Shown here piece by piece: positions 32,879 to 48,621 of a DNA stretch of 64,000 nucleotides. The position numbers and the translations under genes are program-made. Source of the DNA: an uncultured cyanobacterium (GTDB lineage: Bacteria > Cyanobacteriota > Cyanobacteriia > Cyanobacteriales > Nostocaceae); the NCBI GenBank assembly GCA_963706595.1, contig OY970166.1:704001-768000 (forward strand). The letters are read 5' to 3'. The number at the start of each line of letters is the position of its first letter. The stretch's first letter is position 1. The notes under the pieces were generated by a model, which saw only the letters and a list, made by a program, of their open reading frames with translations, searched no databases and was not told the origin of the DNA.

Positions 32879-33505
32879 GTGAAAAAAATTAACTTATTTT
32901 TCAAAAAAGAGCTTAATCTTATTCAGTCATATTACGAAATTAGAAAAGAATGTAAATTTCAAATTTTTTTTTCGGGGATTCTTTTAATCAATTTTTTTGT
33001 TTTGCAGTATTCAGTACCAATATCTCTGGTATTACTCGGTAGTCTAACAACGTCAAGAGAGCAACTTGCTTTATTTTTACAAAGAGCTTCTATTTCATCT
33101 AAAGATCCTCAACAAGCAGAATTAGATGAGGCTTTAGCTAAGAAAGAATCTGAAATATTATTGGGAAAAATAATATTTATATTTGGAATAATATCTATAT
33201 TATTAGGAGTAATAAATAATACTGTGCGTCCGGCGGAAAATTATGATACTTGTGCTAAATTTAATAGTAAGTTTTCCCACTTTCATCGAGATTTAGACTT
33301 ACAAATTTTAAATAAAGGAGGCTTAGAAAATAAGTCAATCGATACTCCGGAATTCAAGATTATGTGTTTATTTTTGATTGAAAAAAGTGATGAGCTTACC
33401 CATCTAATAAATGAATATAACGAAGCTAGATCCCTTAGTCCACGACAAGCTAATATTCAGGCTTTAAAAAATCAAGAGAATAAAGATGAATTAGAAAGTA
33501 ATTAG
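32879..33505 (+). CDS. 2TM membrane protein, SLATT/DUF4231-like
   Basis: Two hydrophobic segments followed by NNTVRPAENY and a helical tail; very AT-rich; GTG start uncertain. Confidence 0.5.
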   Translation: MKKINLFFKKELNLIQSYYEIRKECKFQIFFSGILLINFFVLQYSVPISLVLLGSLTTSREQLALFLQRASISSKDPQQAELDEALAKKESEILLGKIIFIFGIISILLGVINNTVRPAENYDTCAKFNSKFSHFHRDLDLQILNKGGLENKSIDTPEFKIMCLFLIEKSDELTHLINEYNEARSLSPRQANIQALKNQENKDELESN

Positions 33506-34230
33506 TCTGCTATGGGTTGCAATGGTTAGCTGATAAAGGTAAACGCTTTGATTATAAGGAAGACCCGGAACGGGTAAATTTGACCATAACCTCACCTTGA
33601 CTCTTCCTAGCTTGGGATGCTTCACCTCTAAACTTTGAGTGACTTCGGTTTGAGAATTGTGGTGATAAATTCGGGTTAGAGACGCTTCAACATTACCAGA
33701 AGCACTGGCTGCTGTCCAACAGATTCAGGATCAGGACTATCGCGCCGATGCCCTAAGTGCCTTAGCTCTTCCTGTGTCTAAAGATGCCAACAACTCTACT
33801 TTTCCTTACTTCATTGTTAGTCCATCTCCCCGGAAGAAAAAAATCGCTCTCCGTATATGATTGCGTTCTCTAAGGTTTTTATTTTGTCATAAGTAGTAAG
33901 TGCAGCTATATTCGTAGCTTTAATCACTCAATAAAAATTCTTCAACTTATTTCTTTGTACACATATACTGGATAAGATATTACAGCAGGAAGCGTAAAAC
34001 GATAAATTTAGCATCTATCAATAGTAGGAGTTAGCATATAAATATATTTCTTAAAAAAAGATTATTTTTCTGTCCTTTGGAGGTTTTAACAGTCAAAGCA
34101 CCTCTTAGAGAAGTATATACTTAGAATCAAGTTGTTGTAACAGAGTTGACTTGGCGACATAAAACACCATCCAAAATGGTGAAACTCACCTTGTCCATAA
34201 TCACAGCGATTTAATATCCAATACTTACGT

Positions 34231-43947: not shown

Positions 43948-46900
43948 ATGTCCAAATCAAAGTACGATTTTCACCGCAACTTTGCAATAATTATTGGTAT
44001 TAATAACTACTTAAATGGCATTCCAGAGCTAGAGACACCAGTTGCTGACGCTGAAAAATTCGCCAAAATTCTCCAAGAAAACTATCAATATGAGGTGCAG
44101 ATATTACTAAATGAAAAAGCTACACTATTACAGTTAACTTCTCTATTAGCAGACCTTAAACAAAAAACACTACATTTACCTGAGAAAACATTACAGATAG
44201 AACAAAGTGACCGTTTAATATTTTACTTTGCCGGACATGGAATAGTCCCCGCAGATGGGCTAGAAAACAGGGATAATCTGGCAGGCTATCTTGTCCCCCA
44301 GGATGCCAGAGGAGATATTCTTCTGCAAAAGCAAATAGAAATTAACAAAATTCTCCTGCCCATGCAAGACTTGCATGATGCCCTTGTAGAACTACCTTGC
44401 CGTCATTTACTAGTTATACTAGATTGCTGTTTTGCTGGGGCATTTCGTTCGAGTTTATATCGAGAAATTCTCCCGGCGCGAAAAGTTTATAAACAAAGGT
44501 ACGATCGCTTTATTAGAGATAGAGCATGGCAAGCGATCGCATCTGCGGCTCATGACCAAAAGGCGATCGATTATCTCGGTTGTTTCGGACAGAGGGGAAG
44601 CACAGGAAAACACTCGCCTTTTGCAGAAGCCTTGTTTGATGGTTTAGTGGGTGCTGCCGACACAACGCTACGAGAAGGTGATGGTATTATCACAGCAACA
44701 GAACTTTACTGCTATTTACGCGATCGAGTTGAAGAACTTACCGACGAACTTGATAAACGCCAAACTCCCGGCTTGTTTCCCCTGAAAAAGCATGACAAAG
44801 GCGAGTATATATTCTTACTACCAAATTTTGACCAAAACAAGTTAGAAGATGCACCAGCACTCAACGAAGAAAACAACCCTTATCGGGGTTTAAAAAGCTA
44901 TGAAGAACAGCATTCTCAGTTGTTTTTTGGCAGAGATGAACTAATCAAACAACTATATGAACGTGTTCTTCACCCTAAAAACCCACTAACTGTAGTTTTA
45001 GGCGTTTCCGGTTCTGGCAAGTCTAGTTTAGTCAAAGCGGGGTTAATCCCTTATATAAAGGCTAACCATAACGAAGATTGGTACATTATACCTACATTCC
45101 GTCCTGGTGAATCTCCCTTCGCCGCACTGGCTGAGGTAATAGCAATCAATACTGAGGTTAGTGAAAGTAAAATAGAGGTAATTAAGTCTCTCAGCGAGAC
45201 GCTTATACAAGCACCAAAGCAATTCATTGAAATTGTAGCCAATGGCAGACAAATCCCTGCAAATGCAAAGCTTTTATTGGTGATTGACCAATTTGAAGAA
45301 CTAATTACCATCTGCAAGCAACAAGAGCGAGAGCAGTTCTTAAATTTTCTGGCACAAGTATTAGAGGTTAATGCTCAAAAGTTGCACATAATCATCACCT
45401 TGCGCTCTGACTTTGAACCGCGTTTTTTAGATTCTGCACTCAAACCCTATTGGAGTGGCGATCGCTTTCCAGTACGCGCCATGAGGTCTGATGAATTACG
45501 GCAGGCCATTGAAAGACCAGCTAATGAAAAAATGTTGGATTTCAACCCACCAAATCTAGTTGACCTGCTCATTGACGAAGTAGGGCAAATGCCCGGCTCT
45601 CTATCACTATTATCTTTTACTTTAAGTGAACTTTATACTAAATGTATTGAGCGGGAAAGTAGAACTTTAACTCAGGCAGATTATCAGGAGTTAGGCGGAG
45701 TTGCAGGTTCCTTAACACATCGAGCAACGGAAATATACAACAAACTGGACAAAGCCCAGCAAATCACAATGCAACGGGTGATGTTGCGGATGGTGACAAT
45801 TGAAGGCGGGGAGTCAGCAAGGCGAAGAGTGCCTTTATTTGAGTTGATATATATAAGTAATGCAGAAAATACGCGAGTAGAGGAAATCCGTCAACTGCTG
45901 GATAAATCGCGTTTGATTGTGGGTGGACAGGAACCAGGGGGTGAACCCTATGTAGAACCAGCCCATGATGCCTTGGTACGAGGGTGGAGTAAGTTACAGG
46001 AGTGGAAAAATGAGGAGCAGGAAAACTTGTTACTGCAACAGCGTTTAACTCCTGCGGCTAATGATTGGGACAGAAATAATCGACCTATTGGCTTATTGTT
46101 ACCTGATGGCGATCGCCTCAATCAGTTGGAGAAAATTCAGGCATTACCTGATAACTGGTTGAATCAGCAAGAGGTAGACTTTGTTCAAGCAAGCATTAAT
46201 TATAGAAATATTCAACAAAGGCTCTCTAGAGAACAACAAACAAGAACAGAACTACTACGGAAAGTAAATAGAGTAGAAGATTTACTTACTTCTCAACCGT
46301 TGAACGGTTTAATCTTAGCAATTCAAGCCATAGGGGAAAATTTAGAAAAAATTCCCCATACAATTTTAATGGCTGCTCAGTCTAGTTTACATAAAATGGT
46401 TTCTCGCTCCAGAGAGTGTAATTTTTTTTGTAGTGGAAGCTTTTGTGTAGATTTCAGTCCTGATGGAGAAATGATTGTTAGTGGTGGCGGAGAAGGCGTT
46501 TTCCAACTATGGGATCTAAAAGGAAATTTAATCAGTGAATCTTTATCTCACAATGGCTCTAGCATTAGTACAGTAGTTTTCAGCCCTGATGGTCATAATA
46601 TTGCTAGTGGTGGTGGCAGTGGATTTTACTTATGGGCTATAGACAGTACAAATAAATCCTTTCATCTTGTAACATCAAATTCTGATTTCTCTATTAAATT
46701 TATAACTTTTAGCCCTTCGGGAAACTACATTATTAGTGGTAGTAATGATGAGAAACTGCAAGTTTGGGATAGTCAAGGAAATTTACTTGCTCATCAATTT
46801 TCTGCTGAGAACGGATGGTCAAGAGATAATCGAGAGGCTATTAATGTAGCTTTTGGTTCTTCAGACAACGATTTTGTTAATGCTTGTGGTGAAATCTTAA

Positions 46901-48621
46901 AGCTTTGGGATACTTTTGTTAACCGAAAAAGGAACAGCATCCACATACTTTGTAAAGTAAATTCTGTAGCCTTGAGTCCAGATAATCAAATAATAGCTAT
47001 TGCTTCTAATAATAGTCATATTCGTCTATGGAATATAGAAGAGCAATCTCTGGGCGAACCTTTTAGCGGATACGAATCTTCATATCCAATCCAATCAGTG
47101 AAATTTAGCCCTAATGGAGAATACATTGTTAGCGGGAGTTTTGACCAAACAGTACGTTTATGGGACTTAAACGGAAAGCTAATTAATACGCCTTTTATTG
47201 GTCACGATCAATTTGTCTATTCTGTAGCTTTTAGTCCTGATGGTACAGGTATTGTCAGTGGCGGTTTAGATGGCATCAGAATTTGGGATACTCATGGCTA
47301 CAAAGCTACCCAAGTTATTAAAGATCACCAAGGAGAGGTGAATGTGGCAGTTTTTAGCCCAGACGGAAATTATATATTTAGTGGTGGTGATGACGGTAAT
47401 TTAAGACTTTGGGACATCAAGGGGAATCTTATTGACAAAACCTCCATAAATAGTCAGGATGCTATTACTTGCCTCTCTATAAGTCTTGATGGAAAATATA
47501 TAGTCAGTGGCAGCTATGAAGGTGATTTAAGACTTTGGAGCATTCAAAATCAACGTCTACATCAGCTCTTCATTGTTCATCAAGATGGTATAAATGCTGT
47601 AGCTTTTAGTCTCAGTGACAACTTAATTTCTAGTGGTGGTGAGTCTGGAATTGTAAAACTTTGGAATTTGGAAGGTAATTCTGTTGGTGAACCCTTCATT
47701 GAACATCAGTCACGGATTACTTCTATCGCATTTAGTCCCGATGGAGCAATGCTGGCCAGTGGAAGTTCTGATGGTAGTCTTGGACTATGGAACATTAATG
47801 GTCAATCTATCATTCAACCCTCTAGAGTTGATGGTTGTTGGGTTGATTGTCTAGCCTTTAGTCCAGATGGAAAATACATCATAAGTGGTATCAATAATGA
47901 TCCTCTGAGTGGTCGTGGTTTTGGTGGTGTACTGAAACTTTGGGATTTATAAGGTAACATTATCGGTAATCCCTTCACTGGTCATGAAGACAGTGTTACT
48001 TGCGTAGCTTTTAGTCCTGATGGGACGCTAATAGTTAGTAGCAGTGTTGATGGCACTGTTAGACTTTGGGATCAACAAGGGAATGCTGTTGGTTCTCCCT
48101 TTATTGGTCACAAATTTCGTGTTACATCTGTAGATTTTGATCCAACTGGAAAGCAGGTTGTCAGTAGCGGTGTGGATGGCACAGTGCGTTTGTGGCCAGT
48201 TGATTGGGTATATTGGTTGCAAGTAGGTTGCGATCGCCTCCGCTACCATTCTGTTCTCAAGAATCCTCAAACTGAAGTAGAGAGACAAGCCTGGGAAACT
48301 TGTCAAAATTATGTCTGGGAACCAGAAAAAGGTACTCAAAAGTTATATGAGCAAGCACTACAAAGGATTAAGGACAAAGAAAACTTTCCCGCAGCAGAAG
48401 AAAAAAATTTTTCAGAAGCGATCTCAATCTTGAATCTAGTGATTCAGTTTAATCCAGCTCATGCTGATGCTTACTACCATCGGGGCAAGTGCTATGCTGA
48501 TTTTCAGAATAAGCACATAACAACAGTAGATTTTAACACGGCTGCGACTCTATATCGGCAGCAAGGAAAAACTGAAACTGAGGAGTACCAGGAGGTTATG
48601 AAATTCCTCAATCAGCTTTAA
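43948..48621 (+). pseudogene. Caspase-STAND-WD40-TPR protein with an in-frame TAA at 47950-47952
   Basis: Same motifs as upstream paralogue (GVSGSGKSS); no TM; frame continues after WDL* as GNIIGNPFTGHEDSV... into ORF 48172-48621. Confidence 0.88.

Follow-up and report, generated by a model that had tools for sequence, protein, structure and literature searches.

Why does a cyanobacterial genome hold caspases, STAND receptors, a lipase-like hydrolase and a lipoprotein side by side between insertion sequences? The original prediction for the window (the whole 64,000-nucleotide stretch analysed here) was an apoptosome-like cascade, in which receptor caspases process a caspase–lipase zymogen that damages membranes together with the lipoprotein. 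We find that the conserved core is two genes, CL (a caspase–hydrolase fusion) and then a caspase–nSTAND1–transmembrane (TM)–sensor receptor; in most related loci the two adjoin or almost adjoin. The cluster is probably a two-step self-destruct switch. We put at roughly 50% the reading that this two-gene, two-caspase module, which is sporadic in filamentous and other cyanobacteria, signals to lipid attack and to the death or disabling of the cell.

Genes and boundaries of the cluster

29386..30588, + strand: IS630-family element, left flank of the island (HTH ORF 29466-29831, DDE_3 ORF 29976-30545)
32879..33505, + strand: neighbouring ORF of 208 aa, hydrophobic at residues 34-52 and at 94-112
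34231..35121, + strand: all-helical lipoprotein, 296 aa (signal peptide, lipobox FASGC, Cys22)
35146..38967, + strand: CL gene, 1273-aa fusion protein (Nhel, caspase, beta-sandwiches and linker, hydrolase)
35146..35505, + strand: Nhel, N-terminal helical domain of the fusion protein, ~113 aa (alignment of 21 sequences)
35506..36345, + strand: CL orthocaspase domain (Peptidase_C14; His204 at 35755-35757, Cys265 at 35938-35940)
36322..38115, + strand: middle of CL, beta-sandwich domains in tandem plus the linker that has conserved Arg854-Gly855 (37705-37710)
38098..38967, + strand: CL lipase-like alpha/beta-hydrolase domain (DUF7379; HG oxyanion motif, Ser1074 at 38365-38367 in AHSMGG, Asp1221, His1249)
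39057..43805, + strand: S1, caspase, nSTAND1 NTPase, single TM helix and WD40 propellers, 1582 aa (Pfam and hydropathy)
43948..48621, + strand: S2, paralogous caspase–nSTAND1–WD40–TPR gene without a TM helix (in-frame TAA at 47950-47952)
49420..49966, + strand: IS630-type remnant, right flank (DDE_3 fragment, Pfam E 1.4e-05)

As predicted, five co-oriented genes form an IS-bounded island, with 24 bp between the lipoprotein and fusion genes. All ORFs are on the + strand (32879-33505, 34231-35121, 35146-38967, 39057-43805 and 43948-47952, plus 48172-48621). The left IS630 element matches Pfam DDE_3 (E 1.9e-25) and HTH_23 and has terminal inverted repeats (29386-29432 / 30542-30588); the 46-nt end repeat recurs in the right-hand DDE_3 remnant, where the right terminal repeat is found again at 49914-49959 (direct repeat, 91%). 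Three further transposase genes lie on the left, and the surroundings consist of IS elements and envelope polysaccharide genes. No recognised defence genes were found in the flanks. The PADLOC search that had been proposed as a check matched the generic ‘caspase’ model in the cluster but no named defence system.

The 208-aa ORF had been taken for a SLATT-like component of the system. Its two hydrophobic segments are present (KD hydropathy 2.06 and 2.66), but it matched no Pfam, PADLOC or NCBIfam family and no SLATT HMM, with no Pfam match even at E ≤ 1; a language model gave a lead to DUF4231/SLATT_2 clusters (0.87-0.91). Its one homologue among 150 same-family genomes lies between RND-pump and ABC-transporter genes, a different context, and none of 21 lipoprotein loci has one. 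The ORF is probably a bystander rather than a component.

The caspase, STAND and WD40 domains of the two predicted paralogues are present in both receptor genes, but the second is interrupted. Beyond the stop, 47953-48621 continues the S2 frame and encodes two WD40 repeats, a cap at the C-terminus and a TPR; in place of the TAA codon, one relative reads GAA and another AAA. Given the in-frame stop and the continuing repeats, S2 is a nonsense-interrupted gene of ~1557 codons: a soluble paralogue of S1, shortened here, in which a hydropathy scan found no TM helix. We rejected an annotation as a 1334-aa protein and a separate 149-aa ORF (48172-48621), because that ORF is the tail of S2 after the stop.

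A caspase–hydrolase gene and a linked receptor gene

The caspase domain of CL matches Pfam Peptidase_C14 (E 1.3e-22) and the PADLOC ‘caspase’ model (E 1.7e-43), and among solved structures it comes closest to metacaspase-4 (E 7.6e-11), the GHG and CHSG motifs of the two being in alignment. The hydrolase domain matches Pfam DUF7379 (E 1.7e-16) and has weak similarity to the PGAP1, LCAT and palmitoyl-thioesterase families; the closest solved sequences are the lipases 6nkc, 7r1k and 1qge (E 0.0015-0.0037). The 12 homologues compared show no variation at H204, C264/C265, S1074, D1221 or H1249, and the His and Cys residues align and are identical in all three caspase domains of the cluster. The caspase–lipase fusion, its Ser-Asp-His candidates and the three His/Cys dyads are thus as originally described.

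Between the two catalytic domains, the modelled middle region (AF2, pLDDT 78, pTM 0.70) resembles transglutaminase and PapD-like beta domains (Foldseek, E 3e-5 to 1e-3) and contains low-confidence loops at residues 735-748, 763-769, 830-833, 854-856 and 950-958. R854 and G855 are each kept in 102 of 105 CL homologues and lie within a loop with pLDDT <50, upstream of the hydrolase. Arg854|Gly855 is therefore a candidate cleavage site, the best among the conserved basic sites of the linker.

S1 and S2 match Peptidase_C14 (E 1.8e-15 and 1.6e-17) and nSTAND1 (E 4.4e-95 and 9.2e-108), both have WD40 repeats, and their Walker A (GASGTGKSS, GVSGSGKSS) and Walker B (DQFEE) motifs are intact, as had been claimed. 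S1 also has a TM helix, assigned by hydropathy scan alone, at residues 803-821 (nt 41463-41519), between nSTAND1 and WD40; the segment, FWIAVVLAFAGVTSFALYF, has a KD value of 2.05 and is preceded by KRRNIRN. This helix was overlooked in the original prediction. In 18 of 20 CL-linked homologues a helix is predicted at the equivalent place, after nSTAND1 and before the sensor, and there too basic residues lie N-terminal to it. Because it separates the NTPase from the propellers, the WD40 sensor of S1 is probably extracytoplasmic.

The linkage of the two genes extends beyond this genome. Related loci share descent, so the following synteny counts are not independent events: CL follows the lipoprotein gene in all nine lipoprotein-anchored loci with downstream DNA, and the same nine have a caspase–nSTAND1–WD40 gene, in eight of them downstream in the same orientation and in the ninth upstream; in a separate phylum sample, CL homologues occur in 11 of 300 other genomes, and the ten loci with full-length CL have caspase–nSTAND1 directly downstream (six), two genes away (one), fused to CL (one) or not adjoining (two). 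The natural fusion is a 3065-aa ORF in one genome (C14-mid-DUF7379-C14-nSTAND1-TM-Peripla_BP_6), the TM segment of which precedes the periplasmic-binding-protein domain. One same-genus genome has the CL–receptor pair and lacks the lipoprotein; the system occurs in one of ten other same-genus genomes. Same-strand adjacency with short gaps is seen at CL identities of about 46% to 93%, and chance adjacency is unlikely given that this 5.57-Mb genome has only four full-length nSTAND1 genes. Neighbourhood conservation, which the original prediction proposed to check for the lipoprotein, caspase–lipase and STAND genes, is found for CL and caspase–STAND; the 208-aa (2TM) ORF does not share it. Co-conservation and fusion are expected if the receptor caspase acts on a caspase–lipase substrate.

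The same loci bear on whether CL needs a receptor. CL could be a self-contained zymogen whose caspase processes the CL hydrolase, either in cis or in trans, with the STAND receptors as independent orthocaspase systems that co-travel in variable, IS-rich regions. The CL dyad is intact, so self-processing could suffice; besides the two unlinked sampled loci, the genome of the cluster itself encodes a CL paralogue without an adjoining nSTAND1 gene; and cyanobacteria have many orthocaspase genes, according to the accessible text of PMC8283722. We nevertheless consider this unlikely in view of the adjacency over a wide range of identities, the natural fusion and the scarcity of nSTAND1 genes.

We infer a receptor-driven mechanism from these domains, residues and gene linkages. 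The orthocaspase and nSTAND1 NTPase of S1 would be cytoplasmic, with the WD40 propellers across the membrane. Binding of a signal from the periplasm or lumen would lead to NTP-dependent oligomerisation of the STAND module, and proximity would activate the receptor caspases, which would cut CL within exposed loops of the linker, on the C-terminal side of conserved basic residues, with Arg854|Gly855 as the foremost candidate. The cut would release or license the hydrolase, and possibly also the CL caspase as an amplifier; the hydrolase would then attack membrane lipids and kill or disable the cell, in abortive infection or altruistic death within the filament. Co-conservation, fusion and the candidate Arg-Gly site favour the receptor-caspase-to-caspase–lipase part of the predicted cascade, but not the roles given there to the 2TM protein and the lipoprotein.

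An extracytoplasmic sensor would also suit a non-lethal function in envelope signalling or lipid remodelling, in which the receptor reports the periplasmic state and limited proteolysis turns on a lipid- or lipoprotein-editing hydrolase, for example in stress, differentiation or filament fragmentation. The dedicated lipoprotein partner, the weak similarity of the hydrolase to PGAP1, palmitoyl-thioesterase and LCAT families and the adjoining envelope polysaccharide genes are consistent with such a function. Its patchy, accessory distribution (the 1/10 and 11/300 above), however, together with the IS flanks and a decaying paralogue, fits conflict systems better than housekeeping, and related hydrolase fragments are toxic in Escherichia coli in the accessible text of 10.1101/2025.11.14.688446. 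We regard this function as quite unlikely.

The lipoprotein and its predicted helical partner

In the Nostocales subclade studied here, the CL of the proposed two-caspase switch has gained an N-terminal helical domain, predicted to bind the upstream lipoprotein. The signal peptide, the lipobox Gly-Cys (G21 and C22 invariant in 27 homologous sequences) and a modelled long helical bundle (AF2, pLDDT 81, pTM 0.78) agree with the predicted helical lipoprotein; a fold search with the model gave no informative match, and the family comprises 636 representative clusters at E ≤ 1e-3. Nhel is homologous to small free-standing proteins encoded after the lipoprotein gene in other loci, such that this helical domain of ~110 aa is free-standing in some loci and fused to CL in others, including here. 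Lipoprotein and Nhel are adjacent or fused in every examined locus with downstream DNA, and hmmsearch with Nhel gave matches in 8/8 further loci and 2/2 high-GC metagenome contigs. In an RNA-seq library of a relative with ~92% identity, contigs cover both the lipoprotein gene and CL, a weak observation that does not prove a single transcript.

Complex modelling supports binding of Nhel by the lipoprotein: median ipSAE was 0.72 (best of three controls, 0.00; the mark used is reached by 116/157 solved complexes and 2/215 mismatched pairs), at least 60% of contacts agreed between runs and partner pLDDT was at least 74. The lipoprotein is expected outside the cytoplasm and no export signal was found in CL, so the modelled binding lacks a compartment, and the claim that the lipase acts on membranes together with the lipoprotein is unsupported.

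The lipoprotein and helical domain form a conserved, previously undescribed adaptor module of two genes, found elsewhere beside different lipases: other lipase genes follow the free-standing pair in some loci, with Lipase_3 or patatin in three. Secretion systems include pairs of lipase effectors and lipoprotein immunity proteins, and since the lipoprotein gene immediately precedes lipase-type genes both here and in those three loci, the lipase could be a toxin against other bacteria, with the lipoprotein as its periplasmic immunity protein. This is highly improbable, because neither a secretion signal nor genes for a secretion system were seen at the locus, the conserved and modelled partner of the lipoprotein is the helical domain rather than the lipase, a lipase adjoins the pair in only 3 of 11 free-standing loci (downstream ORFs scanned in part), and the caspase and STAND partners are left unexplained.

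Relation to known systems

The original prediction knew of no characterised system with this composition. In the accessible portions of the literature, the caspase–hydrolase pairing, its proteolytic activation, TM–WD40 and abhydrolase orthocaspases and a cascade model are already in print, but the gene-pair linkage, the fusion, the lipoprotein-adaptor module and the candidate cleavage site are not described in those of PMC7475262 and PMC8283722, which treat single proteins. The architectures of S1 and CL match cyanobacterial orthocaspases reported there, p20-NTPase-TM-WD40 (WD40 predicted outside) and p20 plus abhydrolase, and a TM ‘initiator’ and cytosolic ‘executioner’ were already proposed (PMC7475262).

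With Avs, bacterial NLR-like receptors and the apoptosome, S1 and S2 share an N-terminal effector, a STAND NTPase with Walker motifs, a C-terminal repeat sensor and the expected activation of the effector through oligomerisation. They differ in that the NTPase is of the nSTAND1 clade (no PADLOC Avs model matched), the sensor of S1 is predicted to be extracytoplasmic and the caspase effector probably targets another protein instead of being the direct cause of death. The EACC1-caspase system, as far as PMC7159879 is accessible, likewise has a small conserved ‘constant’ gene before a multidomain caspase protein in multicellular bacteria, sometimes with nSTAND1 (PMC8195603). Its constant gene encodes a single-TM protein, however, whereas the upstream genes here encode a lipoprotein and a helical domain, and the NCBIfam model for EACC1-type caspases gives 38-64 bits here, below its cut-off of 140.

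Closest in logic are the caspase–hydrolase modules, again as described in accessible text. In VMAP systems the caspase is always accompanied by a neighbouring alpha/beta-hydrolase gene (PMC7159879), and in Lysobacter capsici, LcCaspase cuts the alpha/beta-hydrolase LcHydrolase at two R|G sites, yielding toxic fragments; caspases of this kind occur as fusions with beta-transducin repeats or STANDs (10.1101/2025.11.14.688446), and the family has been described chiefly in Actinobacteria and Pseudomonadota. CL differs in its second caspase, ~500 residues of beta-sandwich and, in this clade, a helical adaptor; its receptor has a TM helix; and its candidate site lies upstream of the hydrolase fold, whereas the R|G sites of LcHydrolase lie inside it. 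DUF7379 and LcHydrolase are likened here by alpha/beta-hydrolase class. Both arrangements link a caspase-family protease, fused to STAND or beta-propeller sensors, to an alpha/beta-hydrolase, the candidate Arg854-Gly855 matches the reported R|G sites, and the expected logic is the same: a latent hydrolase that would be freed by site-specific proteolysis.

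Layout of the locus and its flanks

The feature marked out in the original prediction exists and has a richer architecture than that first view described. As had been proposed, its co-oriented open reading frames (ORFs) lie in an island bounded by insertion sequences: an IS630-type element on the left and an IS630-type remnant on the right have a common 46-nt end repeat (91% alike). The domain content is also as first listed, and the lipoprotein gene is separated by 24 bp from the gene for the caspase–lipase fusion (CL). The features are as follows.

29386–30588, IS630-type element, left flank
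32879–33505 (+), 208-aa ORF with two hydrophobic segments (2TM ORF)
34231–35121 (+), 296-aa lipoprotein
35146–38967 (+), CL, 1273 aa: helical N-terminal domain of about 113 aa (Nhel), caspase, β-sandwich middle region and DUF7379 hydrolase
39057–43805 (+), S1, receptor with caspase, nSTAND1, predicted transmembrane and WD40 parts
43948–48621 (+), S2, paralogue of S1, with a stop codon at 47950–47952
49420–49966, IS630-type remnant, right flank

A scan of the locus found no plus-strand terminators in the intergenic gaps, and promoter-like sites were fewer than in shuffled sequences (30 versus 44.3), an outcome that is uninformative. The window carries HIP1 (GCGATCGC) sites, and the best protein matches bear Nostocales names, which points to a cyanobacterium of the heterocystous type as host.

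The 2TM ORF had been thought to encode a SLATT-like member of the system, and neither part of this claim found support. It has no SLATT, DUF4231 or other family match even at E ≤ 1; a protein-language-model search placed it nearest to DUF4231/SLATT_2 clusters (0.87–0.91), no more than a lead. None of the 21 related lipoprotein loci has it, and its one homologue in 150 same-family genomes is flanked by an RND pump on one side and an ABC transporter on the other. Judging from this distribution, we do not count the 2TM ORF as part of the predicted system.

The flanks contain further elements. A 581-aa ORF at 24242–25987 (−), which matches SpvB (profile positions 58–287 of 287) and FG-GAP and lacks an N-terminus, abuts a DDE_Tnp_1 transposase gene (22945–24249) and looks like a broken fragment of a toxin-complex/Rhs-type gene. 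Immediately to the right of the IS630-type element is a 120-nt direct repeat (30800–30919 and 31109–31228, 93%), each copy of which contains the perfect palindrome TGGAGGAAAACGTTTTCCTCCA. A 262-aa ORF at 31411–32199 (+) matches no family in Pfam, PADLOC or NCBIfam and lacks a counterpart in the 21 related loci. At 53438–53857, a unit of approximately 273 nt occurs in two tandem copies (81–84% alike) upstream of a Wzz/ParA-like gene (50940–53132, −) of a polysaccharide cluster.

The caspase–lipase fusion and its probable receptor

All three caspase domains belong to Peptidase_C14 (Pfam E = 1.3e-22 for CL; 1.8e-15 and 1.6e-17 for the receptors) and keep the predicted His/Cys dyads, which are identical in the alignment; the catalytic His lies in GHG and the Cys in CxSG or CFAG, the motifs of orthocaspases. 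The nearest relatives of the CL caspase are plant metacaspases (alignment to metacaspase-4, E = 7.6e-11). Its C-terminal domain is a DUF7379 α/β-hydrolase (Pfam E = 1.7e-16) in which the Ser-Asp-His triad is intact, as first proposed: 12 CL homologues, down to 41% identity, all keep S1074 (in AHSMGG), D1221 and H1249, together with the HG motif and, in the caspase, H204 and C264/C265. By sequence the hydrolase is nearest, marginally, to true lipases (E = 0.0015–0.008). A non-lethal pathway of envelope or lipid remodelling is a rival reading of the locus, which we consider improbable. Searching short proteins with the hydrolase domain returned mostly fragments from contig ends, which were uninformative about stand-alone forms.

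Proteins of the CL type (caspase, middle region and DUF7379) form a large cyanobacterial family of 738 clusters at E ≤ 1e-3, annotated as ‘caspase family protein’ and with source names from many orders; only 15 of the best 120 have the N-terminal helical domain. The genome studied here carries a second CL-type gene (L007:9309–12824 (−), C1:2297323–2300823; 46% identity), also without the helical domain. Its neighbours are a gene with a DnaJ domain and, in convergent orientation, a CHAT-AAA_35 gene; no caspase-nSTAND1 gene adjoins it.

AlphaFold2 (AF2) models residues 393–990 of CL as a string of β-sandwich domains (pLDDT 78, pTM 0.70), for which a structure search gave only generic β-sandwich matches (TM-scores 0.13–0.17). 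Low-confidence loops fall at residues 735–748, 763–769, 830–833, 854–856 and 950–958. Metacaspase-type enzymes cleave after basic residues. Arg854 is present in 102 of 105 sequences and is followed by Gly855 in 102 of 105; both residues lie within one of the low-pLDDT loops, upstream of the hydrolase fold. Other conserved arginines near such loops are Arg761, Arg827 and Arg934.

S1 and S2 each contain nSTAND1 (PF20703; E = 4.4e-95 and 9.2e-108, respectively) and a WD40 array. Their Walker motifs are intact, as claimed (GxxGxGKS and DQFEE), and an effector and a repeat sensor flank the NTPase, the arrangement of nSTAND1-type STAND proteins. The view of S1 and S2 as two caspase-STAND-WD40 paralogues stands for their domains, but the S2 gene does not stop at 47952, where the TAA (47950–47952) is in frame. 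Either a nonsense substitution has occurred or the assembly is wrong at this codon, because the 222 codons that follow encode two more WD40 repeats, a C-terminal cap as in S1 and a TPR, and because the aligned codon reads GAA and AAA in two relatives. In the sequencing runs, sampled words were covered to at most 0.21 in any run, and the assembled contigs belong to relatives.

S1 has a single strongly hydrophobic segment (residues 803–821, Kyte–Doolittle (KD) hydropathy 2.05), with KRRNIRN just before it, exactly where the NTPase gives way to the WD40 array; a hydropathy scan found no such segment in S2. Of 20 receptor homologues linked to CL, 18 have a hydrophobic helix with a basic N-terminal side at the equivalent place, and beyond this helix the fused protein of locus L054 has a domain of the periplasmic-binding-protein type. 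Taken together, helix position, basic side and periplasmic-type domain suggest, from a Kyte–Doolittle scan and the positive-inside rule rather than a dedicated predictor, that the caspase and NTPase are probably inside the cell and the sensor outside. With a sensor facing outwards, as predicted, NLR-like sensing would reach beyond phage proteins in the cytoplasm to signals in the periplasm.

The expected conservation of the caspase–lipase and STAND genes as neighbours was borne out. Nine lipoprotein-anchored loci include downstream DNA, and in all nine the lipoprotein is followed by CL. Eight of them have a same-strand caspase-nSTAND1-WD40 gene further downstream (three after an extra caspase-middle gene); in the ninth this gene is upstream. 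When 300 other genomes of the phylum were sampled independently, 11 had a CL homologue. Of ten loci with full-length CL, six have a caspase-nSTAND1 gene directly downstream (one being a 397-aa fragment) and another has it two genes away; in one, L054, the two proteins are fused; in one CL is followed by C14, CHAT and CHAT-NACHT genes, and the last has no such gene. A same-genus genome has the CL–receptor pair (CL at 89–93% identity) but neither the helical domain nor the lipoprotein. In the 5.57 Mb of the genome studied here, just four nSTAND1 genes are full-length. The fused ORF (L054:3111–12305 (−), 3065 aa) encodes C14, middle region, DUF7379, C14, nSTAND1, a hydrophobic helix and Peripla_BP_6 instead of WD40. 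As the loci share descent, none of these counts represents independent trials.

This conservation over wide divergence, with the fusion, is good evidence that CL and the caspase-nSTAND1 receptor are a functional pair, as far as gene order and domain content can indicate. Two other accounts can be given. CL, with a conserved caspase of its own and no adjacent nSTAND1 gene in two of the ten sampled loci, might be autonomous and self-processing, which we find unlikely beside its recurrent partner. A lipase toxin with the lipoprotein as its immunity protein seems very improbable.

Other genes occur near CL. At L055:5774–7454 (−), CL and the receptor gene are separated by a gene for an AAA_21 ATPase (AbiEii/ABC-like) and by an ORF of 186 aa, and DUF1822 and CHAT-CHASE2 genes adjoin CL loci in two genomes (L053:11661–15324 and L061:12965–13993).

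The lipoprotein and its helical partner

The lipoprotein has the lipobox FASGC, with G21 and C22 invariant in 27 sequences, as in bacterial lipoproteins; the signal peptide and the Cys persist in distant members, and in 16 of these the Cys is invariant. The AF2 model is a long helical bundle of good confidence (pLDDT 81, pTM 0.78). A Foldseek search of the PDB returned nothing at E ≤ 1e-3, the best matches being de novo bundles and ClyA/AhlC-type toxins (E = 0.015–0.3), and the best match in a wide VIA search, to a designed helical bundle (Z = 11.6), lies below the tool’s stated noise level for helical proteins. The family comprises 636 representative clusters at E ≤ 1e-3 and 160 at 1e-30.

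At 11 more distant lipoprotein loci (35–42% identity), the next ORF encodes not CL but a protein of approximately 125 aa that aligns over its full length with the first 113 or so residues of CL and ends where the fused domain ends. The lipoprotein with a small helical ORF also appears in eight of eight loci from a separate profile search, some possibly from the same genomes, and in two of two metagenome contigs with 58% G+C (short contigs, found with a single-protein query). A complex model of lipoprotein residues 23–296 with helical-domain residues 1–113 has a median ipSAE of 0.72, compared with 0.00 for the best of three controls; 116 of the 157 solved complexes reach the tool’s mark, as do 2 of the 215 mismatched pairs. 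Runs share at least 60% of contacts, with a partner pLDDT of at least 74, and the modelled interface includes lipoprotein residues 101–112 and 183–197 and Nhel residues 63–77. The modelling supports binding of the helical domain by the lipoprotein.

Helical partner and CL lack a signal peptide, whereas the lipoprotein is of an exported type. Three explanations of this mismatch are possible: the helical domain is oriented N-out, it binds only the un-exported lipoprotein precursor, or the complex model is a false positive. We did not adopt Nhel as a transmembrane anchor, as its C-terminal segment reaches a KD of only 0.8–1.8 (17-residue window) and has conserved K/R.

After the free-standing pair comes a class-3 lipase gene in two loci (L019:11422–12390 and L021:11272–12390) and a patatin gene in one (L025:3946–5646), each in the place held here by the caspase–lipase. 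Beside the pair in six loci (L019, L021–L024 and L026) is a mostly divergent gene for an NB-ARC/NACHT-WD40 protein (approximately 1180–1265 aa, 12–13 WD40 repeats), which, given a weak HTH hint at its N-terminus, may be a STAND-type regulator. The module is therefore found with three unrelated lipase folds and with two clades of STAND-WD40 protein. The idea of an EAD-type homotypic adaptor was dropped: by eye, the N-termini of the NB-ARC-WD40 proteins are unlike Nhel, and this region of approximately 90 aa gave a weak HTH_28 match in one of three (E = 0.004).

Proposed cascade and comparison with known systems

We favour, at a probability of roughly one half, a pair of sensor-initiator and executioner. 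An outward-facing WD40 sensor would trigger NTP-dependent oligomerization of S1, the S1 caspase would cleave CL within its linker loops and the lipase-like domain would then destroy membranes, with the caspase of CL perhaps acting as an amplifier; in this clade, the lipoprotein–helical module would tether or gate CL. More tentatively, and with considerable doubt, the whole could be a prokaryotic two-tier caspase cascade, in which a membrane-spanning NLR-like initiator reads a periplasmic cue through WD40 repeats and activates a cytoplasmic caspase–lipase, joined to a widespread trans-envelope adaptor family formed by the lipoprotein and its partner of approximately 110 aa. The role of such an adaptor would be to dock or gate enzymes that destroy membranes; it might, for instance, signal that lipoprotein export has failed, or hold the effector in place by means of a helical domain oriented N-out.

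Research on cell death in cyanobacteria has long asked whether bacteria have apoptosis-like caspase cascades or only single protease switches. The locus and its relatives offer a compact, clonable pair of receptor caspase and caspase–lipase, whose pairing a natural fusion supports, and the cascade is directly testable because the candidate cleavage site is specific (Arg854|Gly855). The lipoprotein and helical adaptor are a large, widespread family without annotation; they recur beside three unrelated lipase types, and understanding them could show how such effectors are restrained at membranes. The main value of the locus lies in this testable cascade and this unannotated pair.

PADLOC has no defence-system model that matches the locus, and an anti-phage role, as first suggested, is therefore an analogy. 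No PADLOC Avs (AVAST) model matched S1 or S2; their matches were limited to ‘caspase’, HEAT-ARM_XIII (within the WD40 region) and, weakly, mad3/mad8. The EACC1-caspase model NF047832 scored 37.7–64 bits against a cut-off of 140, with no EACC1-like single-TM gene upstream, and no locus protein matched gasdermin in PADLOC or Pfam. In CC-licensed PMC and bioRxiv texts, we found no literature on DUF7379 and no description of a CL–receptor pair or fusion, the candidate cleavage site or the lipoprotein–adaptor module; supplementary neighbourhood tables (PMC7159879 and the preprint), outside this scope, may list such operons.

Several components have precedents in published work. nSTAND1 was defined in PMC8195603, and some STAND proteins are predicted to have periplasmic sensor domains (PMC10907252). 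Cyanobacterial orthocaspases with AAA_16, a transmembrane helix and WD40 predicted outside the cell have been described, as have abhydrolase-bearing orthocaspases, and transmembrane initiators with cytosolic executioners were proposed (PMC7475262). Caspase domains of VMAP conflict systems always neighbour an α/β-hydrolase gene, according to PMC7159879. A Lysobacter caspase cuts its own α/β-hydrolase at two R|G sites to give toxic fragments, and caspases of this type are fused to β-transducin repeats or STAND (bioRxiv 10.1101/2025.11.14.688446). The locus likewise combines a caspase gene with an intact-triad hydrolase, fused in CL and adjacent to S1; this comparison with the LcHydrolase family is by arrangement and triad, the CL domain being Pfam DUF7379. 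Whereas the module of Kaur 2020 and Evans 2025 has two R|G sites in the hydrolase, CL has one conserved R-G, upstream of the fold. Of the claim that no characterized system has this composition, what stands is that the pair and the adaptor are undescribed in the literature searched; the locus itself is built from published parts.
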